This document shows positions 1 to 36,170 of a stretch of DNA of 36,170 nucleotides, in pieces. The first letter of the stretch is position 1; the number at the start of each line of letters is the position of its first letter. The stretch is from Candidatus Methanomethylicia archaeon (GTDB taxonomy: Archaea; Thermoproteota; Methanomethylicia; CALHIW01). The DNA is taken from the NCBI GenBank assembly GCA_038845975.1, contig JAWBQF010000028.1, positions 1 to 36,170 on the forward strand. The letters run 5' to 3'. The notes beneath the pieces are model-generated. The model worked only from the letters and a program-made list of their open reading frames with translations. It was not told where the DNA came from and searched no databases. Position numbers and translations under genes: made by a program.

Positions 1-101
1 TACTTATTAAACAAGACATGGATTAATAAGAAGATAAAGCTAAGAATTCATAGAAACACAAAACAAAATAGAATAATCAACATGCTTAAGTTAACAAAGC
101 C
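1..101 (+). mobile_element. Right end of decayed IS6-family element (lineage A), truncated by window edge
   Basis: Aligns with 22580-22680 (ACATGGATTAA..AAAGCTAAGAATTCATAGAAA..CATGCTTAAGTT); ends GCTTAAGTTAACAAAGCC, reverse complement of the left end GGCTTTGTTAACTTTAG at 21963. Confidence 0.8.
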
Positions 102-109
102 TTACTAAG

Positions 110-625
110 AGACGTAGCAACTCAAGCTTACTTTCTATGTGGTTGTAGATGGTATGAATAGGTTTAGTATTCAATTTTTCTCTTATCATGTAGTTGTTAT
201 TGATACTTTAGTTCTCTACTGAGTAGTATCCTACTTTACTATACTTCTCTTACTGAAAGATACTTCTAAATGTGGTAGTTTAAGTTTTGAGAGGAAGTTG
301 TAGTACATTATCAATGAAGAATATTAATTCCATCATAATGCTTTAATACTTCATGAGAATTGTTTAAACATCATGATATTCCCCATATACTTCCATAGCG
401 AACTTGTCTGAAAACTCTTAAATATTGTTAAGACTTAACTAAACCAATAAGTTAACCACCAATAATTGGTTTCAGACAAACTCACAGAAAGCTATACTAG
501 AATCTTAACATCCAACAGAACTGCATTCTCCTCAAAAACTCCAAGACCTCTAGCCAAGCTCCTAGTACTAAGCATAAAAACAATAAATAGCAAAATTTTA
601 TGTAACTTATTAGGCGCCGTTGTCC
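110..625 (-). mobile_element. Decayed IS6-like element (lineage B), internally deleted and interrupted by a MITE
   Basis: Reverse complements of 484-620 and 300-399 align with 35830-35935 and 36108-36170; end AGACGTAGCAACTCAAG resembles GGATGTGGCAACTTAAG at 35814; broken frames read MLSTRSLARGLGVFEENAVLLDVKIL and RTKV..NNNY..YNHI. Confidence 0.6.
400..483. mobile_element. 84-bp MITE, copy 1
   Basis: Imperfect TIRs GAACTTGTCTGAAA / TTTCAGACAAACTC; inverted second copy at 21692-21780. Confidence 0.8.
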
Positions 626-712
626 TATATTATGCGTTAAGTTTAAATCTAGGGAAACTATTAATTCGTCAACTTATATATTCTGCTCTGTGTTAGTAAT
701 GGAGGATTATGA

Positions 713-958
713 ATGTCTACTCGAAAACTTAATATATTTAGTCACGTACTAGTACCTAAACATGAAATCCTAACTAAGGAAGAGGCTATTAAGATTCTAC
801 ATGAATTAAATGCTAAGCCTGAAGACCTTCCCTTAATTAAAGTATCAGACCCTGTAGTTAAAGCTCTTGGTGCAAAACCTGGAGATATTTTAAAAATATA
901 TAGAAGGAGTCCAACAGCAGGAGTAACCATAGCTTATAGATACGTTACTTCAAGGTGA
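713..958 (+). CDS. rpoH: RNA polymerase subunit H (Rpo5)
   Basis: HVLVPKHEIL, LPLIKVSDPV, GDILKIYRRSPTAG motifs; GGAGGA SD. Confidence 0.97.
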   Translation: MSTRKLNIFSHVLVPKHEILTKEEAIKILHELNAKPEDLPLIKVSDPVVKALGAKPGDILKIYRRSPTAGVTIAYRYVTSR

Positions 959-963
959 TTTAA

Positions 964-3900
964 GTGAACAACTCCATATCCTATAATGATAGATGGCTTC
1001 TAATAGAGTGTTTCATTAAAGAAAAGGGACTTGTAAGACAACATCTTGATAGTTACAATGCTTTAATTGAACATGGCCTTCAAAAAATCATTGATGAGAT
1101 AGGTATGATTTCAAGTAGTGTTGGTGATGTAATTATAAAATTTGGTAAAATAACAATTGGAGAACCCATAGTTAGGGAAGTTGATGGTACCGTCACAAAT
1201 ATTTATCCAATGGAAGCTAGACTTCGTAACTTAACTTATGCATCCCCACTATATTTAGAAATGTCAGTAGTTGAAGGTGGTATTGAGTATGAGCCTTCAA
1301 TAGTATATATTGGTGATTTTCCAGTAATGGTTAAATCGTCAATTTGCAGACTATCAAAACTATCACCGGAAGAACTTATAGCAAGAGGTGAAGATCCGAG
1401 TGATCCTGGAGGCTACTTTATAATAAATGGATCTGAAAGGGTTATAGTAACTCAAGAGGACTTAGCTGTAAATAAAGTTCTTGTCGATTACGGTCCTTCA
1501 GGCAGCTCAGTTACTCATGTTGCTAAGGTATTCAGTTCAACGGGTGCAACCCGTTCACCTGTTACACTTGAACGTTTAAAAAATGGAACAATACAAGTAT
1601 CAGTTTCCCATCTAATCCCAGGCAAAATACCCTTAGTAATAATGATGCGTGCCTTAGGTCTTGAAAAAGATAAAGAAATTTTAGATGCAGTTACAGATGA
1701 CCCTACACTAGCACAAGAACTATATCCATCATTTAATCAAGCATCATCAATACAAACTATTGATGATGCTCTTGACTTTATTGGTGGACGTATAGCAGTA
1801 GGGCAACCTCGTGAAGTAAGAATTCAGAGAGCTAAACAACTTCTTGACACTCATTTTTTACCTCATTTAGGTCCAAGTCCAGCTAATAGAATAAGAAAAG
1901 CGTATTTCTTAGGGCAAATGGCCTGCAGACTTCTAGAACTTGCTAATGGTTACAGGAAACCTGACGACAAAGACCATTATGCTAACAAAAGACTGAGATT
2001 AGCAGGTGACTTGCTTGCAAGCGTTTTTAGAGTGGCATTTAGAAGTCTTTGTAAAGATTTAAAATATCAACTTGACAAAATGCGTGGTAGAGTTAAGAAA
2101 ATTAATCTTGAAACCCTCATTAGAACTGACATAGTAACTGAACGTTTAAAACATGCACTTGCAACTGGTAACTGGGTTGGTGGAAAGGTTGGGGTTAGCC
2201 AGCTTTTAGATAGGACAAATATAGTTTCAACATTAAGTCACTTAAGAAGAGTAGTATCTCCATTAAGCAGAACTCAACCTCATTTTGAGGCACGTGATCT
2301 TCATGCTACACAATGGGGGCGTCTATGTCCAAATGAAAGTCCTGAAGGGCCAAACTGCGGTCTTATTAAACATTTGTCGCTAATGTCTTATATTTCTGTT
2401 GGTACCGATCCTCAGCCTATTTATGAATTCCTAGTAAATGCAGGCGTAATTCCAATTCAGAAAGCAAGAAGTGAGGGTATAAAGGGCACTAAGGTATTTC
2501 TTAATGGTGAGCTTATCGGCATACATCCTAAAGGAGAGCAGTTAGTTAGTTTAATCAGACGAGCAAGAAGAAATGGTGAGCTTAGTGATGAGGTTAATGT
2601 AGCATTTTATGATGAAAAATTTTCAGTTGAAATATATGTTAATTGTGACTCTGGTCGTGTTAGAAGACCATTGATAATAGTTGATAAAGGTAACTCTAAA
2701 TTAAAACCTGACCATATAGATAAGCTTAAGAAAAATAGATGGGAGTGGAAAGATCTTATAGTTAATGGTATAATTGAATACCTCGATGCTGATGAGGAGG
2801 AAAACGCTTATATAGCTGTAGATTTCTCTGATATAACTGAAGAACATACTCATGTCGAAATAGCGGCGCCTGCAATATTTGGTATAGCTGCATCTATAAT
2901 ATGCTATCCTGAACATAATCAATCACCAAGAAACTCGTACGAATGTGCCATGGCAAAACAAGCATTAAGTTTTCCTGCATCAAATCTCCTTGTTAGATTT
3001 GATAGTCGTGCACATTTACTGCATTACCCACAAAAACCACTAGTTACCACTAGAGGTATAAAGCTAGTAGGCTATGATAAACGTCCTGCAGGACAAAATT
3101 TTATTGTCGCTGTACTTTGTTACAATGGATATAATATGGAAGACGCTATTATTTTAAATAAGTCGTCTATTGACAGAGGTTTAGCAAGGTCGACTTTCTT
3201 TAGGTGTTATGAAACTGAAGAAAAAAAATATGTTGGCGGCCTTGAGGATAAAATTGAAATTCCGCCTGAAGACGTCGAAGGTTATAGGTCCCCAGATCTG
3301 TATAGGCATCTAAGTGAAGATGGAATAGTTGAACCTGAAATAGAAGTTAAAGGTGGCGACGTCCTTATTGGAAAAACAAGTCCTCCAAGGTTTGCTGAAG
3401 GGTACATAGAGCTTTCAGGTATTTCTATGCGAAGACATGAAACCTCTATTGTTATGAGGCATGGTGAAACTGGGATTATAGATTCAGTATTAATAACGGA
3501 ATCTATGGATGGAAACAAATTAGTTAAAGTTAGAGTTCGTGATCAACGTATTCCAGAACTTGGAGATAAGTTTGCCTCAAGACATGGACAGAAAGGTGTT
3601 GTAGGTCTTCTTGTTCCTCAGGAGGACATGCCGTTTACTAAGGATGGATTAGTTCCTGACTTAATCATTAATCCTCATGCTATTCCAGCCAGAATGACCG
3701 TTGGACAATTAATAGAAACAGTAGCCGGTAAAGTTGCATGTTTATTAGGTAGAGAAATTGATGGAACGGCCTTTTATGGTGAAAAAGAGAAGGATCTTAG
3801 AGAATGGTTAAAAAAACTTGGCTTTTCACCAACAGGAAAGGAAGTTCTATATGATGGCATAACAGGAGAGAAATATGAAGCTGAAATATTTATAGGAGTT

Positions 3901-4299
3901 GTCTACTATCAAAAGCTTCATCATATGGTTGCAGATAAAATACATGCACGTGCACGCGGTCCAGTTCAAATACTTACAAGACAACCAACAGAGGGAAGAG
4001 CAAGAGAAGGAGGATTAAGATTTGGTGAGATGGAGAGGGATTGTTTAATAGCACATGGTGCTTCCTCACTACTAAAAGAAAGATTGCTTGAAGAATCTGA
4101 TCTTTACCAGATATACGTATGTAATACTTGTGGACTACTAGCATATTATGATAAAAATAAGGACCGTCTATGGTGTCCTGTTTGTGGTGAGAGAGGTAAA
4201 GTAGCGTCAGTTATGGTATCTTATGCTTTTAAGCTATTACTTCAAGAACTTATGAGTTTAGGTATTGCTCCTAAACTAGTTATTGGAGAAAGGGTGTAA
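964..4299 (+). CDS. rpoB: RNA polymerase subunit B (Rpo2), unsplit
   Basis: GYFIINGSERV, GDKFASRHGQKG, GGLRFGEMERD, C-terminal Zn finger; GGTGA SD and GTG start. Confidence 0.99.
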   Translation: MNNSISYNDRWLLIECFIKEKGLVRQHLDSYNALIEHGLQKIIDEIGMISSSVGDVIIKFGKITIGEPIVREVDGTVTNIYPMEARLRNLTYASPLYLEMSVVEGGIEYEPSIVYIGDFPVMVKSSICRLSKLSPEELIARGEDPSDPGGYFIINGSERVIVTQEDLAVNKVLVDYGPSGSSVTHVAKVFSSTGATRSPVTLERLKNGTIQVSVSHLIPGKIPLVIMMRALGLEKDKEILDAVTDDPTLAQELYPSFNQASSIQTIDDALDFIGGRIAVGQPREVRIQRAKQLLDTHFLPHLGPSPANRIRKAYFLGQMACRLLELANGYRKPDDKDHYANKRLRLAGDLLASVFRVAFRSLCKDLKYQLDKMRGRVKKINLETLIRTDIVTERLKHALATGNWVGGKVGVSQLLDRTNIVSTLSHLRRVVSPLSRTQPHFEARDLHATQWGRLCPNESPEGPNCGLIKHLSLMSYISVGTDPQPIYEFLVNAGVIPIQKARSEGIKGTKVFLNGELIGIHPKGEQLVSLIRRARRNGELSDEVNVAFYDEKFSVEIYVNCDSGRVRRPLIIVDKGNSKLKPDHIDKLKKNRWEWKDLIVNGIIEYLDADEEENAYIAVDFSDITEEHTHVEIAAPAIFGIAASIICYPEHNQSPRNSYECAMAKQALSFPASNLLVRFDSRAHLLHYPQKPLVTTRGIKLVGYDKRPAGQNFIVAVLCYNGYNMEDAIILNKSSIDRGLARSTFFRCYETEEKKYVGGLEDKIEIPPEDVEGYRSPDLYRHLSEDGIVEPEIEVKGGDVLIGKTSPPRFAEGYIELSGISMRRHETSIVMRHGETGIIDSVLITESMDGNKLVKVRVRDQRIPELGDKFASRHGQKGVVGLLVPQEDMPFTKDGLVPDLIINPHAIPARMTVGQLIETVAGKVACLLGREIDGTAFYGEKEKDLREWLKKLGFSPTGKEVLYDGITGEKYEAEIFIGVVYYQKLHHMVADKIHARARGPVQILTRQPTEGRAREGGLRFGEMERDCLIAHGASSLLKERLLEESDLYQIYVCNTCGLLAYYDKNKDRLWCPVCGERGKVASVMVSYAFKLLLQELMSLGIAPKLVIGERV

Positions 4300-4301
4300 A
4301 A

Positions 4302-6953
4302 ATGTCGGCTTCTTTAACTACCTACATTAAGGCAATGAAGTTTAGCTTGCTCTCACCAGAAATTATTAGAAAAATGTCTGCAGCTCAAATAATTACCTCT
4401 GATACCTATGATGAAGATGGATTACCTATTGAGGGAGGATTAATGGATAGACGTTTAGGAACTATAGAACCAGGCCGTGCATGCCGTACATGTGGAAACT
4501 TTGTTGGAAAATGTCCAGGACATTTTGGACATATAGAATTAACACGTCCAGTTATACATGTAGGTTTTGCTAAAGTAATTTATAATTTGTTAAGAGCAAT
4601 ATGTCGTGAATGCAGTTCGCTCTTAATTAATCCTAAAGATAAAGATCGATATCTAAAATTATTAGCAAAGTATGAAAAGACATCATTAAGATTAATACGA
4701 GCATTAACAAATCATATTTTTAAGAAGATAGTAAAAAATCCCCTAAAAATCTGTCCAAAATGTGGTGCTGAACAATATTTAATAAAGCTTGAAAAGCCTA
4801 CTTCCTTTTATGAGGAAAGACCTGAGGGATCTATTCAGCTAAGTCCAAGTGATATTAGATCCAGATTTGAAAAAATATCTAATGATGATATTAGACTTCT
4901 TGGCTTTGATCCGGAATGCGCTAGACCGGAATGGATGATTTTAACGGTATTGCCTGTTCCTCCAATTGCAGTTAGGCCATCAATAACTCTTGAATCTGGA
5001 ATACGTTCAGAAGATGATTTAACACATAAACTTGTAGATGTTGTTAGGGCAAATCAACGTCTACGTGAAGTTATCGAATTCGGGGCCCCTCAATTGATAA
5101 TTGATGACCATTACAACCTTCTCCAATATCACATAAATACCTACTTTGACAATGAAATTCCCGGAATCCCTCCTGCAAGACATAGAACTGGTAGAAACAT
5201 CAGAGCACTTGCACAAAGACTAAAGGGGAAGGAAGGCAGGTTTAGAAGTAACCTTTCAGGTAAGCGTGTAGATTTTTCATCTCGTACTGTGATTTCTCCG
5301 GATCCAAATTTAAGCATTAATGAAGTAGGTGTCCCTATAGAAATTGCAAAAGTTTTAACGGTTCCTGAGAGAGTAACGTTTTATAATATAGAATGGCTTA
5401 AAGAACTCGTAAAAAGAGGACCATTTGAATATCCTGGGGCAAATTACATAGTTAGACCAGATGGTAGGAGAATTGATTTAAGATATCCAAAAGATAGAAA
5501 CTCAATAGCTGAGGCATTAGAGATTGGAGCAGTAGTTGAAAGACATCTTCAAGATGGTGATGTTGTTCTATTTAATAGGCAACCATCCTTACATAGAATG
5601 TCGATGATGGCTCATAAAGTAAGAGTTCTTCCATACAGAACTTTTAGATTAAACCTATGTGTTTGCCCACCATATAATGCTGATTTTGATGGTGATGAAA
5701 TGAATTTACATGTACCTGAAAGTGAAGAAGCTAGAGCTGAGGCTGAAGTTTTAATGCTAGTACAAGAGCATATATCCTCACCAAGATATGGCGGGCCAAT
5801 AATTGGTGCTATACAAGATTATATAACGGGAGCTTTCTTACTAAGTTTAAGATCGACATTATTAAGCAGAGAAGAAGTCATAATGCTCCTCTCTAAAGCC
5901 GATTACCAAGGAACATTACCGCCACCCGCTATAAGGAAACCAGCTGAATATTGGACTGGAAAACAAGTCATAAGTATGCTAATTCCAAGAAATATAAACA
6001 TGATATTGAAAGCTAATACATGTGAAAAATGCTTTGAGTGCTTGAAGGAATTATGTCCATATGATGCTTACGTTATTATTAGAGAAGGAGAATTATTAAC
6101 TGGAGTTATAGATAAAAGAACCATTGGCGCGCAAGTTTCTGAAAGCCTCATTCATAGGATAATTAAAGAAAATGGAACAAGCAAAGCAGCTGAATTTATA
6201 GATAAAGTTTTTAAACTCTTTCTATGGTATATATCCACTAGAGGATTTACTACAGGTATAGATGATGAAGACATACCTGAGGAAGCCCAAAAAAGAATTA
6301 AAGAAATACTTAATAGGGCAAAGGAGAAGGTTAAGCTCGCTATAGAATCTTATAAGGCAGGAGAGTTAAAAGCTATGCCCGGCCAAACATTAGAGGAAAC
6401 TTTAGAATCTGAAATAATGAAAATATTAAGTGAAGCTAGAGACTCAACAGGTAAAATTGCAGAATCATATCTTAAACCCGGAACTCCAGCTGTTACTATG
6501 GCTAAAACAGGAGCTAGAGGAAGTATATTAAATATGATTCAGATGATAACATGTGTTGGACAACAGTCCCAAAGAGGTAAAAGGATTAATAGGGGATATA
6601 GAGATCGTACATTACCCCACTTTAAGAAGGGAGATTTAGGTCCTGAAGCAAAAGGTTTTATTGTAAGCTCATATAAGACTGGTTTAAGTCCAACTGAATT
6701 CTTTTTCCATGCTATTAGTGGCAGAGAAGCTTTAGTTGATACTGCAGTACGTACATCTCAAAGTGGTTACATGCAAAGAAGATTAATAAATGCTCTTCAA
6801 GACATACATGTAGATTATAACGAATCAGTTAGAGATTCGGATGGGCATATTATTCAGTTTAAGTATGGTGAGGATGGCGTCGATCCATCAAAAAGCGATC
6901 ACGGTAAAGCCGTTAATATTGATAAAATTATAGAAAGTGTCTTAGGTGCTTAA
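4302..6953 (+). CDS. rpoA1: RNA polymerase subunit A' (Rpo1N)
   Basis: Catalytic [17 protein letters not shown], bridge helix [16 protein letters not shown]. Confidence 0.99.
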
Positions 6954-6955
6954 TT

Positions 6956-8128
6956 ATGGCTTTAACGATCAACATAATAAACGAGAAAATAAATCAGATT
7001 ACTGATAAATTACCCCCATCAATTGTTGAAGAACTTCGCGAAAAATTAATAAAACTTCTAGATAAATTAAGTGAGGATACATTATCAGTTATAATTAACA
7101 AAGTAGTTTCAGCCTATAATTCAGCTCAAGTTGAACCATGCGAAGCTGTAGGTACTATTGCAGCTCAATCTATCGGTGAACCAGGTACACAAATGACATT
7201 AAGAACTTTTCACTTTGCAGGTGTTAGAGAACTCAACGTAACATTAGGTTTACCTAGATTAATCGAAATAGTTGACGCTAAAAAGACCCCCTCAACACCA
7301 CAAATGACAATATATCTTGATGAAAACCATAGGTATGATCTTGAAAAAGCAAAAGAGGTTGCAAATAAAATCGAGCAAATCACTGTTGAAAACGTAACGT
7401 CCTCGATTGAAACAGATCTTCTAACAGGTACTTTAATTGTAAATTTAGATCTTGACGTCCTTGAAGATAAAGGGCTAACTCCAGATGATGTAAGAAAAAC
7501 ACTTTCTAAAATTAGAGGTGTTGACGTTACGATGGAGGATAATCAAAGACTAATTGTTCAACTCAGTTCCTCGCTTGATTTTGTGAAACTTCAAAGATTG
7601 AGAGATAAAGTACTAACTACGAAATTGAAGGGCATAACAGGTATAACAAGAGTAGTAATAAGAAAACAGCAAGATGAATGGGTATTACTGACCGAAGGGT
7701 CAAACTTAGCCTCAGTACTAACAGTAAAGGGAGTAGACCCCACACGTACTACAACCAATAATATCTTTGAAATAATGGAAGTTTTAGGTATTGAAGCTGC
7801 AAGGAATGCCATAGTTAATGAAATGATGGGAGTTTTAACTGAGCAGGGATTGGATGTTAATATAAGACATGTTATGCTTGTAGCTGACTTGATGACGAGA
7901 AGCGGCACTATCAAACAGATTGGCCGTCATGGAGTAAGTGGTGAGAAAACGAGTGTACTAGCTAGAGCAGCTTTTGAAGTTACAGTAAAACATTTATTAG
8001 ATGCTAGTATTAGGGGGGAAATAGATGAACTAAAAGGTGTAGTAGAAAACGTGATCGTAGGACAACCAATTCCTGTTGGAACAGGTAAAGTTGAACTCTA
8101 TGCCATTCTTAGTTCTATGATAGGGTGA
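6956..8128 (+). CDS. rpoA2: RNA polymerase subunit A'' (Rpo1C)
   Basis: Trigger loop [21 protein letters not shown]; [14 protein letters not shown]. Confidence 0.99.
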
Positions 8129-8133
8129 ACTGA

Positions 8134-8454
8134 ATGACAATTGATATTGAGAAAGAGCTTAAGGTAGCTTTTAAGACTGGAAAAGTAACTTATGGGTATA
8201 AATCTTCAATAAAATCAATAATTCATGGAAGGGCTAAGTTAGTCATCATTGCCGAAAATATGCCTAAAATTATGAAAGACCGTATTATTCGACTGTCTAA
8301 ATCTTTAAATGTACACGTATATACATTCCCTGGTTCAAGTTTAAGCTTAGGTAGTCTATGTGATAAACCATTCTTTATATCATCAATAGTTATAGAAGAC
8401 CCCGGTGAATCAGAAATATTACAAATTCAGGAGGATAACTATGCCCACCATTAA
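8134..8454 (+). CDS. rpl30e: 50S ribosomal protein L30e
   Basis: KTGKVTYG, AKLVIIAEN, LGSLCDKPF; conserved position after rpoA2. Confidence 0.95.
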   Translation: MTIDIEKELKVAFKTGKVTYGYKSSIKSIIHGRAKLVIIAENMPKIMKDRIIRLSKSLNVHVYTFPGSSLSLGSLCDKPFFISSIVIEDPGESEILQIQEDNYAHH

Positions 8455-8875
8455 ATTAGCATCAGATGAAATTAGATATATTGCATTGTTTGAAACTTTA
8501 ACTGGTGCACAAGTAAGAGATTGTATAATCGACGATGATAATAATCGCATAATTTTTATTGTAAATCCAGGATATGCTGGAATCGCAATAGGCAAAAACG
8601 GTGTAAATATCAAAAGAATTAAAAAAGTAATCGGCAAGAACATAGAAATTGTTGAATATGCAGAGAATATCGAACAATTTGTGAAAAACGCTTTATACCC
8701 AGCAAGAGTTAAGCTAGTTAAAGTATCTACTCTACCAGATGACAGAAAGACAGCATCCATAGCTGTGGATCCTGTAGATAAAGGATTTGCTATAGGTAAA
8801 GATGGAAGGAATATTCAAAAAGTTAAATTGATTTTAAAAAGATACTTCGACATAAGTAATGTGATAGTAGCTTAG
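8441..8875 (+). CDS. nusA: Archaeal NusA (KH-domain)
   Basis: Two KH motifs AIGKNG and AIGKDG; ATG 8441 follows GGAGGA. Confidence 0.95.
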   Translation: MPTIKLASDEIRYIALFETLTGAQVRDCIIDDDNNRIIFIVNPGYAGIAIGKNGVNIKRIKKVIGKNIEIVEYAENIEQFVKNALYPARVKLVKVSTLPDDRKTASIAVDPVDKGFAIGKDGRNIQKVKLILKRYFDISNVIVA

Positions 8876-8888
8876 CAAAATTTATAAA
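8875..8888 (+). promoter_or_regulatory. Putative BRE/TATA promoter for rps12-rps7
   Basis: GCAAAA-TTTATAAA about 20 nt upstream of rps12 ATG. Confidence 0.5.
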
Positions 8889-8908
8889 TTTAATCACCAG
8901 TGAGCATT

Positions 8909-9349
8909 ATGGCTAAAAAATCCCCTCGAGGACTATATGCTGCAAGAAATCTAAGACGGAAACGACAGGAATTCAGATGGTGCTATAGACATTATAAACG
9001 AAGAATGCTAAGACTTGATGAAAAAGTAGATCCGCTTGAAGGTGCGCCCATGGCCAGAGGTATTGTCTTAGAAAAAGTAGGAATTGAATCACGTCAACCA
9101 AACTCAGCTGTACGTAAATGTGTACGTGTACAATTAATAAAAAATGGAAGGCAAGTCACAGCATTTCTTCCAGGTGATGGTGCATTAAATTTCGTAGACG
9201 AACATGATGAGGTTATAATTTGCGGAATAGGTGGACCTATGGGTAAAGCTTATGGAGATCTTCCAGGTGTTAGATATCAAGTTATAAAGGTTAACGGTGT
9301 TTCATTGAAAGCATTACTATTAGGTAAGAAGCAAAAGCCTGTAAGGTAA
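8909..9349 (+). CDS. rps12: 30S ribosomal protein S12 (uS12)
   Basis: [23 protein letters not shown]. Confidence 0.98.
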
Positions 9350-9355
9350 TCACTT

Positions 9356-9979
9356 ATGGTATCTAATTCAGCTAATAATTCCTACCTAAGTAGCAATCAA
9401 AAAATTCTTTTATTTGGTAAATGGTCCTTTGATGATATCAAGATAGAAGATCCCGGTTTAGCTAGGTATATTTGCCTTAAACCTATCTATATACCTCATT
9501 CTGGAGGTAGACATGCTAAAGAGAGATTTAAAAAAAGTACGGTACCAATAGTAGAAAGACTTGTAAATAACTTAATGCATAAGCCAGGCACTAAAAATCC
9601 TGGAAAAAATTCTGGTAAAAAAATACTAGCTATTAATATTGTAAAGCATGCTTTTGACATTATTTATTTAAAAACAGGAAAAAATCCAATACAAGTACTT
9701 GTAAAAGCTATAGAAAATGCTGGACCAAGAGAAGAAACAACAAGGATAGCATATGGTGGAGTTGTATATCATGTTTCAGTTGATGTGGCACCTCAAAGAA
9801 GGGTTGATCTTGCATTACGTCATATAGCTCAAGGAGCCCGATTAATGACATTTAGAAGCCCTAAGCCAATAGAAGAATGTTTAGCCGATGAAATAATATC
9901 AACTGCTAATAATGATCCAAAATCATATGCAATACAGAAAAAGGATGAAATAGAAAGAATAGCTTTTGCCTCAAGATAA
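9356..9979 (+). CDS. rps7: 30S ribosomal protein S7 (uS7)
   Basis: [39 protein letters not shown]. Confidence 0.98.
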
Positions 9980-10061
9980 GATATACGTAATCTAATTTTC
10001 TATAAATTAAATTAAGTTCTTTTATTCCTTTTGTTTATATAGTTACTGACTATCAAATGCT

Positions 10062-10122
10062 AGATGAGGAATGAAATATTATTTAACTCTACTACTTTAT
10101 GATCCTTGCCCACTCTATGAAT
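10062..10122 (+). ncRNA. Candidate box C/D guide sRNA (degenerate boxes)
   Basis: TTTATATA about 22 nt upstream; ATGAGGA (C-like), TTTATGA (C'-like), GC-richer 14-nt segment TCCTTGCCCACTCT, ATGA (D-like); no clear D' box. Confidence 0.3.
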
Positions 10123-10275
10123 TGACAAATACTAATACATTCCGTACTTCTTATTACCATATTGTATTATATATTCTAATGTGTAGTGCTATGAAAAACT
10201 TATATTATAGTATCAATACATAATATACCAAAAAGTTTAATTAATAGCTTAAATCCATAGTTGAGGGGGAAGTAT

Positions 10276-11580
10276 ATGTCATCTAGTAAGCCACACTTAA
10301 ACCTAGTAGTGATTGGACATGTAGATCATGGTAAAAGTACAACAACAGGCCATTTACTATTCCTAACAGGTCACTTAGATCAAAGAACGCTACAGCAAAT
10401 AGAGGAAGAAGCCAAAAAATCCGGTAAGGAATTTGCAAAATATGCGTGGGTTCTTGATAAATTAAAAGAAGAACGCGAAAGGGATATGACCATTGATTTG
10501 TCATTTTGGAAATTCGAAACCCCAAAGTACTACTTTACAATAATTGATTGTCCAGGACATAGAGACTTCGTTAAGAACATGATAACCGGAACTTCTCAAG
10601 CTGATGCAGCTTTACTTGTAGTTTCAGCTAAGAAAGGCGAAACAGAAGCCGGTATTGGACCTGCTGGTCAGACAAGAGAACATGTATTTCTTGCAAGGAC
10701 TTTAGGAATTACACAGTTAGTAGCTGTGATAAATAAAATGGATGATCCATCAGTAAACTGGAGTGAAGCAAGATTTAAAGAGGTTAAAGAAGCTTTAGGA
10801 AAGCTATTAATGACTGTAGGCTACGATCCATCTAAGATAATATTTGTACCAATATCAGCATGGTATGGAGACAATATTGTTAAAAGAAGCGAACATATGA
10901 CATGGTATAAAGGACCAACATTATATGAAGCTCTTGACACCTTTACTGAACCACCAAAACCAATTGACAAGCCATTAAGAATTCCACTGCAAAGTGTTCT
11001 TTCAATAGCAGGTGTTGGTACAGTACCTGTTGGGAGGGTTGAAACTGGAGTATTAAAAGTTGGTGATGTAGTAGTATTCCTACCTGCAAATAAGAGCGGC
11101 GAGGTTAAGTCAATCGAAATGCATCATACTAGGCTCGAAAAGGCAATACCTGGAGATAACATAGGGTTTAATGTAAAGGGATTAAGTAAAGCTGATATTA
11201 GACGTGGTGATGTAGCTGGACACACTACCAAACCACCAACTGTAGTTGAGGAATTTATAGGACAAATCTTCGTGCTTTATCATCCAACAGCAATCGCAGC
11301 TGGATATACACCTGTTCTTCATGTACACACATCAACAACCCCATGTAGATTTGATGCACTCTTAAAGAAAATAAATCCAAGAACTGGTGAAACAATAGAA
11401 GAAGAGCCGAAATTTATTAAACAAGGAGATAGCGCACTAGTAAAGTTTAAGCCACTAAAGCCTGTTGTAATTGAAAAATACTCTGAAATTCCTCAGCTTG
11501 GACGATTTGCAATAAGAGATATGGGACGAACAATAGCTGCCGGTATAGTGAAAGACATAAAGCCTGCAGTTGTGAAATAG
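10276..11580 (+). CDS. tuf: Elongation factor 1-alpha
   Basis: [30 protein letters not shown]; ATG 10276 after GAGGGGG. Confidence 0.99.
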
Positions 11581-11598
11581 ACCTAAAGATGAACTGAA

Positions 11599-11907
11599 AT
11601 GCCACAAAAAGCCAGGATCAGACTTAGTAGTTCAAATCTAGAAAAGCTTACAAATGTTTGTAATGAAATAAAAGAAATTGCAAAGAAAAATGGTATTAAA
11701 GTCTCAGGTCCAATTCCATTGCCGGTTAAAAGACTTATTGTAACAACAAGAAAAGCTCCGAGTGGGCAGGGTAGCCACACATTTGATCATTGGGAAATGC
11801 GAGTACATAAAAGGCTAATAGATATAGATGCTGATGATAGAACACTACGTCAAATAATGAGGGTACCAATACCTGACGAGGTTTATATAGAAATCGAGTT
11901 AATATAA
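11599..11907 (+). CDS. rps10: 30S ribosomal protein S10 (uS10)
   Basis: [27 protein letters not shown]. Confidence 0.98.
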
Positions 11908-11944: not shown

Positions 11945-12052
11945 GCCGGGGTGGCCGAGTGGACTAAGGCGCAGTATTGCGTAAGCCTTGAGTTGATTAT
12001 TCAAGAAAGCCTGTGCCCTTTGGGTGCGTGGGTTCAAATCCCACCCCCGGCG
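11945..12052 (+). tRNA. tRNA-Ser(TGA) with two introns: 11975-11984 (10 nt, site 29/30) and 11993-12007 (15 nt, site 37/38)
   Basis: Acceptor GCCGGGG/CCCCGGC, discriminator G, GGTTCAAATCC T-arm, long variable arm; removing both inserts gives an 83-nt body identical to the tRNA at 33281 except nt 34; BHB-like pairing at both junctions. Confidence 0.93.
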
Positions 12053-12678: not shown

Positions 12679-12936
12679 TGAGTTTGCTATAGTATTTTAA
12701 ATAAAATGATAAGTTACAATTAATAGAGGCCATCGAAATTAAGGTAACAAAACAACTTGAAATACCATAGCTAAACCTTTAATTATGTTATAATAAGTAT
12801 ATATCTGGTCTGTTTAGACACTAATTAGGTGGAACTTAAATGTTCCTGGTGAGTTGATTACTCTACGGACCTTATATATGAGAGCATATGTAGGTGATGG
12901 CTTAAGTTAACTAAGGTGAAGCTAATATTTAAAATG

Positions 12937-13861
12937 GTCTTTACTAAGATGTTTTGCTGGTGTTTTTAATTTTATTATTACCATTGGAATTTGAATAGGT
13001 TTAATATGTTTATGTTTTCTTGATATTCCTCTATATATTAGTGGTCATGGTCCTAATAGACTACGCCTATTTCTCATAGTTATTTAGTATGCACTTCGCT
13101 TCTTACATACTATTTTTTGAGTAGCTTACTGATTGATGGTTAAAGCTAAGTCTCCGATTACATTGTATGAGGGAACTTCATCCGCGTAAACGGGATTCTT
13201 GTTTAACAAGGTGCCCACAAACTATCTTCACAATTACGTTAATTGTTTACACTATGGTATATAATCCTATAGGCCTTTGTCCTTAACAACTAAGAATATG
13301 GGCACTTTATCCTCAGCTCATATATCCTTACATCACTTACCTTCAATTTCACATCTAGACTTCTACTCACAAGCTTAATCTTAATTTTATTACTCCTACT
13401 TTTCAACTTCGCCTTAACCTAGATACCATCAATCTCTATTGAGCTAATCATTATATGCTTTAATCTAACCCTTACGGGAAGTATTTATAATCCTTTCGAT
13501 ATATAGTACCCGCAGTTTCCACCCAACTCCTTAGAAGTGGTAAGTATGGATGTATGTAAAAATCCTAAGAGATGCATTAAATAGAATCAATCCTTAAAGT
13601 ATCTTGAATAAACAAACCTAGTCTTATCGTTAAATATCTTGGAGCAATTCCTACAACGATACCTACAATAATACTCCCTACATCAACTCCACCTAATAAT
13701 ATCGTATGAGTTACAATAATAACATCTAACATCATTAACCACCTAACTAACTTAAGTAACTAAGCAACATAAACCCCACTCAGAAAGAAGATAAAAATTA
13801 CATAAACTAAGATTAAGGAGGAAAGAAAGAGAAAGGTACTAACAAACACCTGAGTAAGAGC
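12937..13861 (-). mobile_element. Decayed IS1595-family element, transposase pseudogene
   Basis: Minus-strand fragments: VRW..NDVRCYYCNS..RYRCRNCSKIFNDKT (Zn ribbon), SIEIDGI*VKA, VYADE..SY, YVRSEVHT, RRSLLGP*..YRGIS; degenerate TIRs GTCTTTACTAAGATGTTT vs rc GCTCTTACTCAGGTGTTT; many stops and frameshifts. Confidence 0.8.
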
Positions 13862-13956
13862 AACAGTCTTGTACTAATACATTTACATAGAATCAGTCTA
13901 CTTCCTACTTCTTTGTGGGCATATAAAATCAGGTTAGAAATAATGAGCATTTTTTT

Positions 13957-18904: not shown

Positions 18905-19621
18905 ATGGGTAAAAGAATTCTTGCTCAAAGGAGAGGGCGCGGTGGTTCAGTATTCATTTGTCCATCATGGAAAAGAGTAGGAAATGTCAAATATAGAGAA
19001 CTTGATGAAAAAGAGAAAAATGGAAAATTAATTGGTAGAGTAGTGGCTATACTACATGATCCTGGTAGAGGCGCACCAGTAGCTAAAATAATTCTTGAAG
19101 ATGGTAGTTCACAATTAGTAGTCGCGCCAGAAGGTATATGTGTAGGACAAGAAGTTGCTATTGGCTCTGAAGCTCCATTAGCAGTAGGCAACATTTTACC
19201 ATTAGCTAAAATACCTGATGGTAGCTTAATATGTAATGTTGAACGTATACCTAATGATGGGGGCAAATTTGCAAGGGTATCTGGGAGTTATGCTGTAGTT
19301 CTTGCTCACGATCCTAATAAAGTAACAATAAAACTTCCATCTGGTAAGATGGTAGCTTTAAATCCAAACTGCAGAGCAACTATAGGTATTGTAGCTGGTG
19401 GTGGTAGAACTGAAAAGCCAATGTTAAAAGCTGGGGCTACTTATCATTTATCAAAGGTTAAAGCATGGAAACCTGTAACCGTAAGGGGTAAAGCTATGAA
19501 TGCTGTAAGTCATCCTCATGGCGGTGGTCAACATCCAACCGGTGGTACTCCTGTTCCTAGAACAGCTCCCCCAGGACAAAAAGTAGGCCATATAGCACCT
19601 AAAAAAACTGGAAAACACTAA
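18905..19621 (+). CDS. rpl2: 50S ribosomal protein L2
   Basis: MGKRILAQRRGRG, HDPGRGAP, AMNAVSHPHGGG. Confidence 0.98.
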   Translation: MGKRILAQRRGRGGSVFICPSWKRVGNVKYRELDEKEKNGKLIGRVVAILHDPGRGAPVAKIILEDGSSQLVVAPEGICVGQEVAIGSEAPLAVGNILPLAKIPDGSLICNVERIPNDGGKFARVSGSYAVVLAHDPNKVTIKLPSGKMVALNPNCRATIGIVAGGGRTEKPMLKAGATYHLSKVKAWKPVTVRGKAMNAVSHPHGGGQHPTGGTPVPRTAPPGQKVGHIAPKKTGKH

Positions 19622-19627
19622 ATTTTA

Positions 19628-19756
19628 GCTTTGTGGCTTAATATTCATTTCTCGTAATCTATATCATTAAATACTATGGTTATAGGAATGTTTATTAAGC
19701 TTTTTCGTACTTTATGTAAACTTGAATTTTCGAATTTCAGAATTAAGCCACAAAGC
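19628..19756. mobile_element. About 130-bp MITE inserted at the rpl2 stop
   Basis: Perfect 15-bp TIR GCTTTGTGGCTTAAT / ATTAAGCCACAAAGC; flanking direct repeat TAAATTTT at 19619-19626 and 19758-19765. Confidence 0.85.
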
Positions 19757-19802
19757 ATAAATTTTTATATTACTGTTCAAATTTAATATTCAAGGTGATT
19801 AA

Positions 19803-21087: not shown

Positions 21088-21188
21088 TAGGATGCCATTA
21101 CTGATTATTAATGGCAAATGTTATCTGCTTTATGTTTAGAGTTCTCATTATTTTTGTATTCTGTATACGTTCACCGAGTTTATATATT

Positions 21189-21299
21189 GAACTCATTGCA
21201 AAACTTCAGAATTTAAGCATGTTAACAATCTTTTACAATACTATTCTCATGTAGAATTAAACCAGTTAAACCTTAGTAGTAGAGTTTTGCAATGACTTC
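21189..21299. mobile_element. 111-bp MITE
   Basis: 16/17 TIR GAACTCATTGCAAAACT / AGTTTTGCAATGACTTC; ATT on both flanks. Confidence 0.75.
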
Positions 21300-21521
21300 A
21301 TTATCAACATAGAGTTCCGTTTTATTTTTTGGACTTGATTTTATCGCAAGTGTTTTAAAAATAGTTGATTTTTACATTTTGCTTTGAATTTATAGCTGCT
21401 TTAAGAGGTACAATATGAAGGTGAACATTTATCAAGATCTAGAATAATGAAAGACTATACACATCTCTATATATAATAAATTGAAGCAAGTCACAATTCA
21501 AACATACTACAAATAATAAGA

Positions 21522-21580: not shown

Positions 21581-21691
21581 AAAACAAATGTGAAAACTTA
21601 ACAGTCATTTAATTTGGCTTCCATAGCTATTCACATAGAATCCAATAATAGTTTTAATAACTCATTTAAAGATGCTTATAAGATTCTCATT

Positions 21692-21780
21692 GAATCTGTC
21701 TGAAAACTCCATAATTAATTGATGGTTAACTTATTAACCTAATCAAGTCTTAACAATATTTAAGAGTTTCAGATGAATTC
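21692..21780. mobile_element. 89-bp MITE, copy 2 (inverted relative to 400-483)
   Basis: Reverse complement shares AAACTCTTAAATATTGTTAAGACTT and AATAAGTTAACCA with 400-483; ATT on both flanks. Confidence 0.8.
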
Positions 21781-21830
21781 ATTAATTAAAGTTAGTCATA
21801 TATCAATTTAAACTATATTTTACACTTGTT

Positions 21831-21962
21831 GGCTTTTTGAACTTTAGCTTTATTTATTACCCTCTTATTTATGGTGTTAATATAGTTAAAGTTGTTAGGT
21901 TTGTTAGGATAACTCTATTTTTTCTAGCTTTATGTTGCTATATATTTTTGTTCATCTAGATA
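21831..21962 (+). mobile_element. Truncated left-end fragment of IS6 lineage A
   Basis: Starts GGCTTTTTGAACTTTAG; aligns with 21963-22102 and 35364-35490. Confidence 0.75.
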
Positions 21963-22680
21963 GGCTTTGTTAACTTTAGATTTATTTGGGAGTTCTCTCC
22001 CCTATTTATGGTGTTAGTATGTCTAAAGTTATCAAGTTTGTTAGGGAGAGAACTCCATTTACTCTAGTTGTTTATTGCTTATATATATTTTCGTTCTTCT
22101 AGGATGGCTTCAGATATTCTAAGCTTCATTATTGTTAGGAGCTATGTATCTATATTATGGTTTATCTTAATCTTCTATTGATTTTGATAGGAGGGATGTT
22201 AGGATTGTTATGGTTGATGATACTATTATTAATGTGGGATCTATGAGGAAGATTGTTTATGTTCGTTTGAGCCATTATTGAGGAGGATTCTATATGTATG
22301 GGTTTTTATGTTGCAACATACTTACATCACTAACATTAGAAAATTAGAGCTATTTACGGTTCTAATATAGTTGTATTAAGTGATGGAGCTCATTATTATA
22401 AAGCATCATGAGAATATTAAAATTAAAACATGAATTGTATAGTTTAGAAGTTAGGAATCTAATGGAGAGAATAATACAGTATATAGGATAGAACTAGACT
22501 ATTCGATAACTACATACCGTGCATGAAGGATAAATGCGGTAATGAGCATGCATTAATGCTTATGAAGTCAATAGCATAGCTAAACGAAACATGGATTAAC
22601 AGGAAAATAAAAGCTAAGAATTCATAGAAAACATAATACCGAAAATAGAGGTGATAAACATGCTTAAGTTCATAAAGTCC
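21963..22680 (+). mobile_element. Full-length decayed IS6-family element (lineage A), DDE transposase pseudogene
   Basis: TIRs GGCTTTGTTAACTTTAG / CTTAAGTTCATAAAGTCC; frames read FVRERTP, VMVDDTIINVG, FEPLLRRIL, VLSDGAHYY, RNLMERIIQYI, DRTRLFDNYIPC (D-D-E) with several frameshifts. Confidence 0.88.
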
Positions 22681-22750
22681 ATTTGTTGCTATTAAAATTT
22701 ATATAGATGTTTCTCTTTAGATGTTAAGTTAAGCTAATATAGTGGATAAA

Positions 22751-31763: not shown

Positions 31764-31777
31764 CTATGGTGTAATGT

Positions 31778-33280: not shown

Positions 33281-33374
33281 GCCGGGGTGGCCGAGTGGAC
33301 TAAGGCGCAGGCCTGGAGATAAACTAGAAAGCCTGTGCCCTTTGGGTGCGTGGGTTCAAATCCCACCCCCGGCG
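33281..33374 (+). tRNA. tRNA-Ser(GGA) with 11-nt intron 33319-33329 at 37/38
   Basis: Cloverleaf with CAGGC/GCCTG anticodon stem, anticodon GGA at 33315-33317; CTGG pairs with intron CTAG between AGA and AAA bulges; TATA-like CTTATATT about 25 nt upstream. Confidence 0.95.
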
Positions 33375-33839
33375 TTCATTTCTTAAAGATATTTAAAACC
33401 TATTCTCATTAAGCTCTTTCCATTAATTGGATTATTTTTGAACGCTAAATTGATAGGTCACTTGGATGTTCTAATCCCTTTCTTGACGCAGCCCTTATAG
33501 ACGTAAACTCATATTCTTCTGGTTGTGAAAACTTGTCTCTATCTTACCCTGGATAGAATTCTGTAATAGTTTATCTCTTGAAAATATTTTATGTCTTGCC
33601 ATAAGAGCAGAGTTTCATTCTTCTTCTAATAACTTTATTGTTAACCGTTTTTGTCATGCAGATGCCTTGCGAATTTAGATATTGAATATTATGGTTAATG
33701 GCTTAGTTCATAAAGACAATTGACAATAAAAGAAATTTAAATATTTTACAATTAAAAGAATCAATCTTAAACCTTGAACTGAGACTTAATAGGAATTACT
33801 GAATATAGTTAGTAGGTATGTTTAAGTCCATAAACTCGA

Positions 33840-33985
33840 ATCCTCTACTATTTCCCTAAATCACACTAGAAAAAGCTAATAAAACTTACAATATGAGTGA
33901 ATTCTCCTACTAAAATCCATAACTACTAATCATATGAATATATAGTAAGAACATCTTTACTTAACATCTAAAGTTAACAAATAAT
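33840..33985 (-). mobile_element. Degenerate IS6 lineage A-like left-end fragment
   Basis: rc of 33967-33981 (TTTGTTAACTTTAGA) equals 21966-21980; weak similarity continues inward. Confidence 0.45.
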
Positions 33986-34014
33986 GAAATATTAAGTGGA
34001 CCTAACTTAATACG

Positions 34015-34971
34015 TTACCATACTTTAGGATATACTTTCCTTTTCATGATTACTCTTATTGTTTTCACAACTACTCCATAATCCATCTCAAATATTTCCG
34101 AACTGGTCCTAAGTGCAGTACCTAAAGCAATAAGTTCATTTTTTAACGTCATTAATGCAACTAAACTTCCCCTCTTAATCGTCGAATCAAGTCTTACAAC
34201 TCCTTGAGCGTAAAGATTAGCTCCATTACATATGGCATCAACAGCCGAATCTCTTACAAATATTTTAGGTGTATCTGCAACAAGTCTTTCCATAGGCTGT
34301 ATTACCTTTCTTAAAAAAGTTTCATCCTTACTTTCAAGCCACATATCATAGGCATCTTTAAGCTTATGAAGAGTTGTAAGACTTGAATCCTCCTTAAATG
34401 GTCCTGAAGATATTCTTCTTAATTCTTGCATGTGTCCTCCAACTCCAAGTAGTATGCCTATGTGATGACATAGCATTCTTATGTATGTTCCAGATTCGCA
34501 TTTTATATGAAAAAGAACATTTCTATTATCAACTTCTAATACTTCTAAATTATATATTTTTTTAATTCTTAAAGTTCTTTTTACAGCAGATCTTAATGGT
34601 GGTCTTTGATATATATCTCCTATAAAATAGGACATCGTCTTTCTTATTTTTTCTTCATCAACATCATCATGAAGTTTTAAAACACCGATATATTCCTTTT
34701 CAGCTTTAGATATTGCATATAATGCTTTGACAGCGTTTTCTAATGCTACTGGTAATACGCCTGAAACTCTAGGATCAAGGGTTCCAGCATGTCCAGCTTT
34801 ATTAAGAGATAGCATGCGTTTGACCCATGCTACTACTTGATGACTTGTAGGTCCTGGAGGTTTATCGAGGTTAATAACTCCATTTTGAATGTATTCCTTA
34901 ATAGGTCTTTCTTCAGGCCTACATCCATATTTCATATCAGTACTTTCATCGGCCTTAATTAGAACACCCAT
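34015..34971 (-). CDS. cbf5: Cbf5/TruB pseudouridine synthase with PUA domain
   Basis: INLDKPPGPTSHQV, GHAGTLDP, YQRPPLRSAVKR, CESGTYIR, DSAVDAICNGA. Confidence 0.97.
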   Translation of the reverse strand: MGVLIKADESTDMKYGCRPEERPIKEYIQNGVINLDKPPGPTSHQVVAWVKRMLSLNKAGHAGTLDPRVSGVLPVALENAVKALYAISKAEKEYIGVLKLHDDVDEEKIRKTMSYFIGDIYQRPPLRSAVKRTLRIKKIYNLEVLEVDNRNVLFHIKCESGTYIRMLCHHIGILLGVGGHMQELRRISSGPFKEDSSLTTLHKLKDAYDMWLESKDETFLRKVIQPMERLVADTPKIFVRDSAVDAICNGANLYAQGVVRLDSTIKRGSLVALMTLKNELIALGTALRTSSEIFEMDYGVVVKTIRVIMKRKVYPKVW

Positions 34972-34991
34972 TCTTGTCCCTGAATCAAATG

Positions 34992-35270
34992 TTATGCAGT
35001 ATTCTGCTTAGATTTAACTGAATATTCCTGAAGAGATGCTAGTACTCTTCGAACTTCACTATCAGGCGCCCCTCTACTTATATTTATCTTTTGTTCTGTG
35101 ATTGAAAGGTGCTTAATATTTACCCTTCTTCTTCTCACACCTGTAAGGTCCTTAGGACCTGTTATAATTACAAAATTATCATCAACTACGTCAACTATAA
35201 CGCATTTCCTATTCTTTTCTCTTCCTCTTGTCTTAATGCATACTCTTCCAATCAAGTCTAATAACGCCAT
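34992..35270 (-). CDS. rpl14e: 50S ribosomal protein L14e
   Basis: IGRVCIKTRGRE, CVIVDVVDDNFV, TGVRRRRVNIKHL. Confidence 0.96.
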   Translation of the reverse strand: MALLDLIGRVCIKTRGREKNRKCVIVDVVDDNFVIITGPKDLTGVRRRRVNIKHLSITEQKINISRGAPDSEVRRVLASLQEYSVKSKQNTA

Positions 35271-35363
35271 ATACAACCCCGGTATGTCAAAGCAATAGCA
35301 ATATTTTGAACTATTGTACTAGCTTTTTACGAACCTGCTTATAACCTTTTCTAAGATATGAAT

Positions 35364-35813
35364 AGTCTTGTGAACTTTAGCCTTATTTAGAGTTCTTTCC
35401 TTATTTATTGTGATGGCACAGTTAGTTTTGTTAGGGAGAAAACTGCATTTACTCCTATTGTTTATTGCTTACATATTTTTGTTCATCTAGATACTTCAAA
35501 TATTTTAAGCTTATTGTTGTAGATTTATATCTATACTGTCATTGTTTAGATCTTTAAGGTTCTTACTTGGATTTGATAGGAAACGCTAAGATTATTATGG
35601 TTAATGATACCGCTATGGGTGTAAGTTTTAGAGTAGGATTATGTATACTGCTTAAGTTGTTATTAGGGAATTCTTACATATGAATTTGTAAATACAAGAT
35701 TACAAATCTTGTAAATACGTTTACATTTCTACCATTTTCTTAAGAGGATCAGGCTACGTATGACTCTAAGGTAACTGTATTAACTGATGGAACTCTATGG
35801 AGCATCATGTTCA
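35364..35813 (+). mobile_element. Decayed IS6 lineage A copy (left part), interrupted by lineage B
   Basis: Starts AGTCTTGTGAACTTTAG; colinear with 21963-22410 (TTTGTTAGGGAGA, GTTTATTGCTTA, ATGGTT.ATGATAC, GTATTAA.TGATGGA). Confidence 0.8.
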
Positions 35814-36170
35814 GGATGTGGCAACTTAAGGGGTTGTATAAGTTTTGTTGTTACTTTTTATGTTGGTATTGGTGTTTGTAGTATCTTGTGGTTTTGAGGG
35901 GTTTTGTTGGGTGTTGAGGTTCTAGTATAGTTTTTATATTAGATGTTTGGGGTTGGAGTATTATTTGGTTATGGGTTTCTGGATGTTTTGGTAGGTGGGT
36001 GAATAGGTTTAGGGGTGAGTGTGGATCATTCTAGGGGTATAGGTGGGACTGGGGTTAATGCTAGTGTAGATTATTGAGTTATTTAGGTATTTAGGGGTGA
36101 AGTAATAGTTGTGAAGGTATTTAAGGGAATATTATGATGTTTAATTATTAATGAGGTATTGTGATGAGTA
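35814..36170 (+). mobile_element. Decayed IS6-like lineage B copy, runs off window
   Basis: Starts GGATGTGGCAACTTAAG; aligns with rc of 484-620 and 300-399; extremely G+T-rich. Confidence 0.6.

Follow-up and report, generated by a model that had tools for sequence, protein, structure and literature searches.

Linear genomes that are replicated from both ends, such as those of the adenovirus type, carry strand skew. Fungal repeat-induced point mutation (RIP) converts C to T on both strands, in a dinucleotide context and above a threshold of length and identity; it has no end polarity and drives its targets towards AT-richness. Gradients in nucleotide and codon usage along the genes of Escherichia coli are said to be the subject of a published study. 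The asymmetry of human genes peaks at the 5′ end. An excess of G+T on the non-template strand is described as a mark of transcription-linked asymmetry in human genes and is explained by deamination (PMC10030826). Here we analyze the transposon relics of contig JAWBQF010000028.1 (C28), the whole of which, 36,170 bases, constitutes the window of this study and which belongs to a 76-contig archaeal genome of 2.77 Mb, 33% GC and 93% completeness. The larger relics are G+T-rich at their left end and A+C-rich at their right end. On balance, we interpret this skew as the extreme of a strand asymmetry that is tied to the transcription units of this archaeon.

The skew had been noticed in a preliminary description of the window, which relied on hand counts over 60 nt. 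All eight of these counts proved exact (G+T of 39, 42, 41 and 50; A+C of 41, 40, 38 and 38). Across 602 non-overlapping 60-nt windows, G+T averaged 29.8 (standard deviation (sd) 4.7), with values of at least 39 in 24 windows, of 22 or less in 31 and of at least 50 in two. Single windows as strong as those counted by hand accordingly represent the 4–5% tails of the distribution, as would be expected if chance or the hand-picking of windows had produced an apparent skew. To describe whole elements we used the measure D, the keto (G+T) minus amino (A+C) content per base of the left half minus the same quantity for the right half; its random expectation was derived from 4000 random genomic windows of matching length. 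The copy of a repeat denoted family A at 21963–22716 yielded a D of +0.334, a copy of a second repeat, family E, at 118–613 a D of +0.435, and an IS1595-like relic at 12900–13900 a D of +0.284. Only 0.47%, 0.15% and 0.63% of random windows, respectively, reached these values. Two miniature inverted-repeat transposable elements (MITEs) in the window were not significant (19619–19771, D of +0.132, a value reached by 25% of random windows; 21180–21311, D of 0.000).

The relics had also been reported to share their polarity on the + strand whatever the orientation of the transposase. This is true but uninformative. Taking the reverse complement swaps the halves and inverts keto and amino, so that D is unchanged, a profile falling from left to right survives, and copies of one family must agree in either orientation; the agreement of oppositely oriented copies is therefore not evidence. 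Only independent families count as evidence for polarity. The copy formerly labeled IS6-B and the copy starting at 35814 belong to one family (E) and provide one observation, not two.

Self-comparison of the genome yielded 24 de novo repeat families of at least 400 bp, which form 19 clusters without mutual DNA likeness. D was positive in 15 of these 19 clusters and in all ten with an absolute value of at least 0.19. The eight transposon-type clusters ranged from +0.24 to +0.44; they comprise families A and E (unclassified), F and 8 (weak IS240 matches), 47 (IS6-like by eye), 4 and 9 (DDE_Tnp_1) and 32/39 (overlapping PF12762 matches). Repeat families made up of host-gene paralogues had D values between −0.14 and +0.19. 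Families 46, 33, 41, 44, 23 and 31 were recognized as host paralogues by eye from their translations, family 35 matches V4R/ACT in Pfam, and family 24 has no Pfam match. Short MITE families had no consistent sign (family 2, 24 members, D of +0.112; family 6, 14 members, D of −0.161). With whole-element values that at most 0.63% of random windows attain and a uniform sign among the strongly skewed clusters, the probability that chance or window choice explains the pattern is practically negligible, and the end-polarised skew of the larger relics is confirmed.

When the skew arose can be judged from families A and 9. Family A (∼745 bp; an imperfect 15-nt terminal inverted repeat is seen at 21970–21984 and 22718–22732) is represented by 244 nhmmer hits that cover about 95 kb, or 3.5% of the genome. 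Its majority consensus lacks a reading frame, the best frame containing 13 stops and the longest open stretch measuring 67 aa. No intact copy is present in the genome, and among 30 relatives searched only the sister genome has copies, which are diverged and of which none was seen to be intact. Family A seems to have multiplied while already non-coding, moved by the transposase of another element. The G+T content of its consensus in successive 60-nt segments is 38, 44, 35, 41, 41, 40, 29, 36, 29, 28, 30, 18 and 24, and all 66 aligned copies follow this profile (sd 2–3.5). Skew did not vary with transversion divergence among 65 full-length copies (rho −0.13 to +0.22, all p ≥ 0.08). An old copy in the window, at 35360–35813, differs from the consensus in a strand-symmetric manner per base (G>A 19/63, C>T 7/28, A>G 7/67, T>C 13/142). 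Family 9 is of the IS4/5 type (Pfam DDE_Tnp_1, E 4e-24). Its single copy with a 290-aa frame has a D of +0.267, and six broken full-length copies have values of +0.254 to +0.294; at four-fold degenerate sites of the open frame, the 5′ half has a T–A skew of +0.569, as against +0.209 for the 3′ half. Because the skew is present in the consensus, is equal in the one intact and the seven broken copies of family 9 and shows no trend with age, it precedes the decay of the elements. The base composition of the relics was inherited from their founders and not acquired.

The same polarity is found in host genes. Among 1505 open reading frames (ORFs) of at least 200 aa, the mean D was +0.055 and 75% of the values were positive, the effect being strongest at third codon positions. 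In 895 ORFs of at least 300 aa, the four-fold skew (T−A)/(T+A) falls almost linearly from the first to the tenth decile (+0.158, +0.115, +0.101, +0.060, +0.027, +0.005, −0.013, −0.057, −0.053 and −0.117), and the four-fold G–C skew is flat. Composition resets at gene ends. Across quintiles, the T–A skew declines from +0.196 to −0.088 where a divergent gap precedes the gene (411 genes) and from +0.153 to −0.094 where the gap is a tandem one (387 genes); for the 318 genes internal to operons the range is no wider than +0.046 to −0.034. Across tight same-strand junctions (318 cases) the skew passes from +0.052 to +0.036, and there is no restart. As delimited by gene spacing, not by RNA, the predicted transcription units, and not the reading frames, are what the gradient follows. 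In the comparison with non-mobile sequence that had been proposed, the 727 non-repeat spacers lack the skew of the relics (D of −0.012 to −0.055), and the host genes share its polarity.

Outside this genome, the gradient is common to several relatives. Between the 5′ and 3′ halves of ORFs, the four-fold T–A skew drops by 0.131 ± 0.006 here and, in the sister genome, by 0.128 ± 0.022; the drop lies more than two standard errors of the mean above zero in five of 16 other archaeal genomes sampled. Values of 0.06–0.16 were obtained for this genome (G000) and for G001, G023, G077, G010, G011 and G002; three relatives of 43–55% GC (G003, G004 and G009) have no such drop. The likeness to the codon gradients reported for E. 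coli lies in a third-position base use that depends on the position in the gene. It does not extend to the T–A fall, which is absent from 72 sampled E. coli ORFs (−0.029 ± 0.034). The active E. coli elements IS30, IS5 and IS1 have D values, computed by hand, of about +0.06, +0.02 and −0.04, so that a strong D is not a general property of insertion sequences (ISs). Five intact SWIM-type IS6-like ORFs of class relatives, which have no close relationship to families A, E or F, have values of about 0.01–0.10. A full-text search of the literature, which leaves subscription journals largely outside, returned no description of such a gradient in archaea or of a polar IS skew.

Because the pattern follows transcription units and a G+T excess on the non-template strand is the mark described for transcription-linked asymmetry, we read the relic skew as such an asymmetry at its extreme. 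In this view a gradient would run through all transcription units of the archaeon and be most pronounced in the founders of the relics; in it, the sense (non-template) strand would be T-rich near the 5′ end, in mobile elements also G-rich, and A-rich towards the 3′ end. A transcription-linked substitution bias might produce such a gradient if the non-template strand near the promoter gained T and G (by C>T, A>G, A>T and G>T) and the bias were reversed near the 3′ end, perhaps through antisense or convergent transcription. Mobile elements would drift furthest, being short units with their own promoter and with weak or no coding selection, and dead copies would inherit the skew and then change little. 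The asymmetry of human genes is alike in that the sense strand is enriched in G+T, that it is tied to transcription units and that it is visible at unconstrained sites. The archaeal pattern differs from it in being mainly one of T versus A, with a flat G–C skew in host genes, in changing sign within the unit and in reaching its extreme in mobile elements, and it is known here from composition. The sense strand of the IS1595-like relic is G+T-rich at its 5′ end.

Several observations weigh against this interpretation. Direct evidence for a mutational cause is mixed in family A. All differences from its consensus, shared variants included, show a 1.3–1.5-fold asymmetry whose polarity matches the skew. 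In the oldest bin, C>T exceeds G>A (30.6% versus 23.3%) and A>G exceeds T>C (10.8% versus 7.1%) in the left half, and G>A exceeds C>T (28.4% versus 21.0%) in the right half. The rare variants, the class that is best polarised, have no consistent asymmetry: by quarter of the element, the ratio of A>G to T>C is 0.73, 0.60, 0.83 and 1.19, and that of A>T to T>A is 0.44, 1.54, 0.69 and 1.00. Moreover, among 347 monocistronic-like host genes of 600–1100 nt only 2% reach a D of 0.24 and none reaches 0.33. Mobile elements hence need more than an ordinary transcription unit, and the weak constraint invoked above is something that we only infer. ORF starts were taken as the first ATG, and in unit-starting genes the value of the first quintile may be raised by non-coding DNA lying upstream; codon selection, not position, may flatten the gradient in highly expressed operon genes. 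The relatives were sampled at 44–400 kb each and, as kin, are not independent. Three metatranscriptome runs from the same study, of each of which 3–5% was read, yielded 0, 0 and 8 reads on 11.3 kb. A parsimony map of 5558 changes on the family A tree was also constructed; it gave falling asymmetry ratios and equilibrium skews that matched those observed, but was set aside as circular because reversals and wrong polarity push such a count towards the present composition.

The preliminary description had explained the skew by a process loosely analogous to RIP, or by a deaminase or an Argonaute-guided defence, that would single out repeats or the ends of elements and introduce mutations from the termini inward. 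Its need for a strand-asymmetric, position-dependent cause stands; the targeting of relics, the direction at elements or repeats, the inward action and the defence do not. Repeat families are indeed the most skewed sequences of the genome, and repeated, decayed transposons with biased transitions are what fungal RIP also leaves. The two copies of family E in the window likewise do differ by an excess of A>G and C>T: after orienting the copies, which are inverted relative to each other in the window, the one at 35814 differs from the stretch 484–620 by 10 A>G and 6 C>T as against 3 G>A and no T>C, with 10 transversions and 90 matches. Transition polarity does reverse along this element, as described below.

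Relics are nevertheless not the target, given that the skew resides in the family A consensus and in every aligned copy and is equal in intact and broken family 9 copies; the presence of skew in an intact copy had itself been named beforehand as an argument against defence. An accumulation with age, as in RIP, is at odds with the missing trend in family A, and rare variants there are symmetric. Action inward from both termini does not fit the profile of family A, in which the two ends are not mirror images: G+T-richness extends over the entire 5′ half, and A+C-richness beyond the host level is confined to the last ∼120 nt. Short MITEs, repeated as they are in 14–24 members, have no consistent sign. 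A process directed at elements or repeats is further contradicted by the polarity at synonymous sites of single-copy host genes, where it follows transcription units. The differences from RIP are thus a dominance of A–G differences, G-richness on one side, skewed intact copies and a skew shared by host genes. Within the 93% complete genome, no Piwi (PF02171) match was found and none of three candidates scored with the dCMP/cytidine-deaminase fold (PF00383, dCMP_cyt_deam_1), other deaminase folds not having been searched; the genes for endonuclease V and uracil-DNA glycosylase are present and open. Finally, the number of transitions on the family E branch discussed below does not point to hypermutation. 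The RIP-like or defence reading is largely refuted, and we regard it as highly improbable. Decayed copies with many small indels do, as had been pointed out, lie beside intact core genes, since none of 61 near-full family A copies has a frame of more than 110 aa and the gene row at 713–11907 is open.

Family E provides the most extreme composition and the evidence that comes closest to a record of substitution. The element is ∼611 bp long when complete, has inverted ends of roughly 17 nt in the alignment and lacks coding capacity. In the copy on contig C21, the left half contains 59 A, 12 C, 106 G and 128 T, i.e. 77% G+T and 4% C over 305 nt, and all frames of the copy are shorter than 40 aa. 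Such a composition is not what coding constraint or symmetric mutation would produce. The copy at 35814 is 96.7% identical to C21:22530–22893 and 99.2% identical to the copy on C58. Since the sharing of states among copies is bimodal, a single branch can be drawn between the clade of the 35814, C21, C58 and C10 copies and the majority of six other copies. On this branch, which is unrooted, the polarity of transitions reverses near two thirds of the element (∼400 of 611). Read towards the clade, positions 1–399 show A>G at 34/106, C>T at 12/22, G>A at 4/73 and T>C at 2/140 sites, and positions 400–611 show A>G at 5/67, C>T at 2/25, G>A at 8/21 and T>C at 7/42. Together with 30 transversions, the branch carries 74 transitions, close to the 43–69 of sister copies (the other copies have 64–97 changes each). 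The transitions are coordinated by strand and in part clustered, but their sequence context is weak, changed A residues following a purine at 17/33 sites and a pyrimidine at 8/36, again unrooted.

The two directions in which the branch can be read lead to different accounts. From the others to the young type, the changes are polar and strand-specific. From the young type to the others, they represent plain relaxation from a skewed ancestor, uniform, strand-symmetric and AT-biased, with GC>AT at about 17–33% and AT>GC at about 5–11% by hand calculation. A comparison of skewed with relaxed sequence mimics strand-specific ‘deamination’ whenever the direction of change is unpolarised. Strand and end polarity of substitutions between copies, which the preliminary description had taken as a sign of its mechanism, is present on the family E branch, though unrooted, and inconsistent among the rare variants of family A. 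The search for a family E outgroup in the sister genome (62% complete) gave no match. Coding remnants offered no root either, as BLASTP found no resemblance between the frames of families E and A and the genome's IS6-like families F, 8 and 47.

If read towards the young clade, the branch would fit an activity-linked, polar mutagenesis specific to mobile elements, in which C>T and A>G arise in the 5′ part of each strand, by convergent transcription from the two ends or by single-strand exposure during transposition, build up in master copies and become frozen in dead ones. The reversal near two thirds of the element agrees with such a process, as does midpoint (clock) rooting, which by hand calculation assigns some 90% of the branch length to the young clade. 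The copies C10:70611–71228 and C21:22530–23140 differ at 41 sites, of which 34 lie in the first 136 nt and seven in the remaining 475 nt; among these 34, A>G or C>T in a single direction accounts for 22. In addition, mobile elements exceed every host gene in D. Against it stand the reverse reading of the branch as symmetric relaxation and, even under the clock reading, left-hand rates of G>A and T>C far below the 19% and 7.5% of sister copies. The cluster between C10 and C21 may mean that C10 is a recombinant, or that strand-coordinated transitions arose in a local burst. In family A no build-up is seen, given its symmetric old copy and the missing age trend; a family E outgroup was not found in the incomplete sister genome; and host genes share the polarity without transposing. 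We think this explanation rather unlikely.

Family E also invites comparison with linear genomes of the adenovirus type. In both, the 5′ part of each strand is keto-rich, the switch falls inside the unit and the pattern is invariant under reverse complementation. The elements described here differ in being chromosomal insertions of 0.6–1 kb without known end-primed replication, in the off-centre switch of family E and in the occurrence of the same sign in ordinary genes. A foldback structure, in which the left half would be complementary to the right half, was considered and rejected (alignment z of 1.9 for family E and −0.6 for family A; inverted matches of 8–14 nt only).

Either mutation or selection on messengers could drive the gradient. 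Selection could favor U-ending codons early and A-ending codons late in the message, for folding, decay or termination, the transposons having carried strongly graded transposase genes. The gradient at four-fold sites of open genes and in the intact transposase frame of family 9 is compatible with this, and so are the failure of rare variants in dead copies to reveal a polar mutation input and the gradients said to be published for E. coli genes. Families A and E, however, lack reading frames and have the strongest skew, up to the 77% G+T of the C21 copy, and no protein-coding ancestor could have had the composition of family E. The skew of family A, moreover, has not decayed with age, although little decay would be expected at ∼5% transversion divergence. 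We consider messenger selection in place of mutation rather unlikely, and the non-coding families argue for mutation at some stage.

A more general form of the transcription-linked reading is that this archaeon and its relatives possess a polar, strand-specific process by which the 5′ part of each strand gains C>T, A>G and T over A in every transcribed unit. The T–A skew of the whole genome would then form a sawtooth with the transcription unit as its period, and unconstrained transcribed elements would be driven to extremes such as that of the C21 copy. We hold this possibility to be doubtful. Were it true, the reversal on the family E branch would be a direct footprint of the process and would suggest that active elements are transcribed convergently or are exposed as single strands from both ends.

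Mutagenesis or defence directed at transposons, as had been proposed, is thus not there, and the genome-wide gradient is the more interesting result. The phenomenon that remains is a T–A gradient at synonymous sites that changes sign within genes, is common to the sister genome and several relatives and is absent from the E. coli sample. If mutational, the gradient would provide a readout, from sequence alone, of the boundaries and direction of transcription units in uncultured archaea and an approach to the strand-specific damage and repair of DNA at high temperature; the sequencing runs related to this genome come from hot springs. If selective, it would reveal a position-dependent constraint on messengers.

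The identity of the elements was examined separately. The label IS6, given earlier to families A and E, is not borne out: their read-through translations match no Pfam family at E ≤ 1 (best stretch E ≤ 10). Their lengths and terminal inverted repeats agree with those of the IS6 family, whose members measure 0.7–0.9 kb, and a DD-T...VGS motif of family A resembles the first DDE region by eye only. The IS1595-like relic (earlier label; 12869–13878, minus strand) likewise has no Pfam match; its minus-strand read-through contains a zinc-ribbon-like, Cys-rich segment and a DDE-like motif, both recognized by eye, and its polarity rests on the D test. Three broken PF12762 matches lie elsewhere in the genome and overlap de novo family 32 (D of +0.369). 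Family F is an IS6-like element of 46% GC in this 33% GC genome, with a lightly broken transposase (for example, C7:63587–64294). Pieces of it that are 97–100% identical are found at contig ends (C30:1–127, C2:157328–157651, C45, C56, C40 and C11). This IS was probably acquired recently, is probably active at present and probably accounts for breaks in the assembly; it is also a candidate for moving families A or E in trans.

Repeats occupy both ends of the window. At the left end, positions 2–107 (plus strand) represent the right end of a family A repeat (profile positions 657–766 by nhmmer), which is cut by the contig start and contains the A+C-rich segment 1–60. Bases 1–127 are 100% identical to the end of contig C23 (41443–41317), an assembly overlap inside the family A repeat, so that the window ends are assembly breaks and not biological ends. 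The family E copy formerly called IS6-B follows at 108–622 (minus strand; alignment with nine other copies). Nested in it, at 400–485, is a small palindromic MITE-like repeat without assigned strand (de novo family 3, 22 members; 16–25 other copies by blastn), the inverted arms of which lie at 404–431 and 452–479. Two further MITEs, also without assigned strand, are one of ∼150 bp at 19619–19771 (de novo family 2), which has no significant polarity, and one of ∼130 bp at 21177–21311 (de novo family 6), whose family-mean sign is opposite. A partial left end of family A (profile positions 29–173, nhmmer) lies at 21827–21960 and the full-length copy formerly called IS6-A, which lacks an open frame, at 21962–22716 (nhmmer), both on the plus strand. 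A short repeat at 21679–21800, with ∼32 copies in the genome, is located directly upstream of family A copies. At the right end, the old, diverged left part of a family A repeat (35360–35813, plus strand; profile positions 29–492 by nhmmer; ∼20% from the consensus) adjoins the left 357 nt of the young, C21-type family E copy (35814–36170, plus strand), which contains the 60-nt segment with 50 G+T and is cut by the contig end.

The host gene row at 713–11907 (plus strand) consists of open frames that, by order and length, probably correspond to rpoH, rpoB, rpoA′, rpoA″, L30e, NusA, S12, S7, EF-1alpha and S10. Its rpoB is 66–69% identical to that of metagenome-assembled genomes of Methanomethylicota, Culexmicrobium and Nezhaarchaeota. 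Rfam yielded two tRNA matches on the window and none on the repeats. These two tRNA genes, at 11945–12052 (108 nt) and 33281–33374 (94 nt), scored 41.5 and 50.6 bits and were missed by ARAGORN; they probably bear introns and are 82.6% identical to each other.

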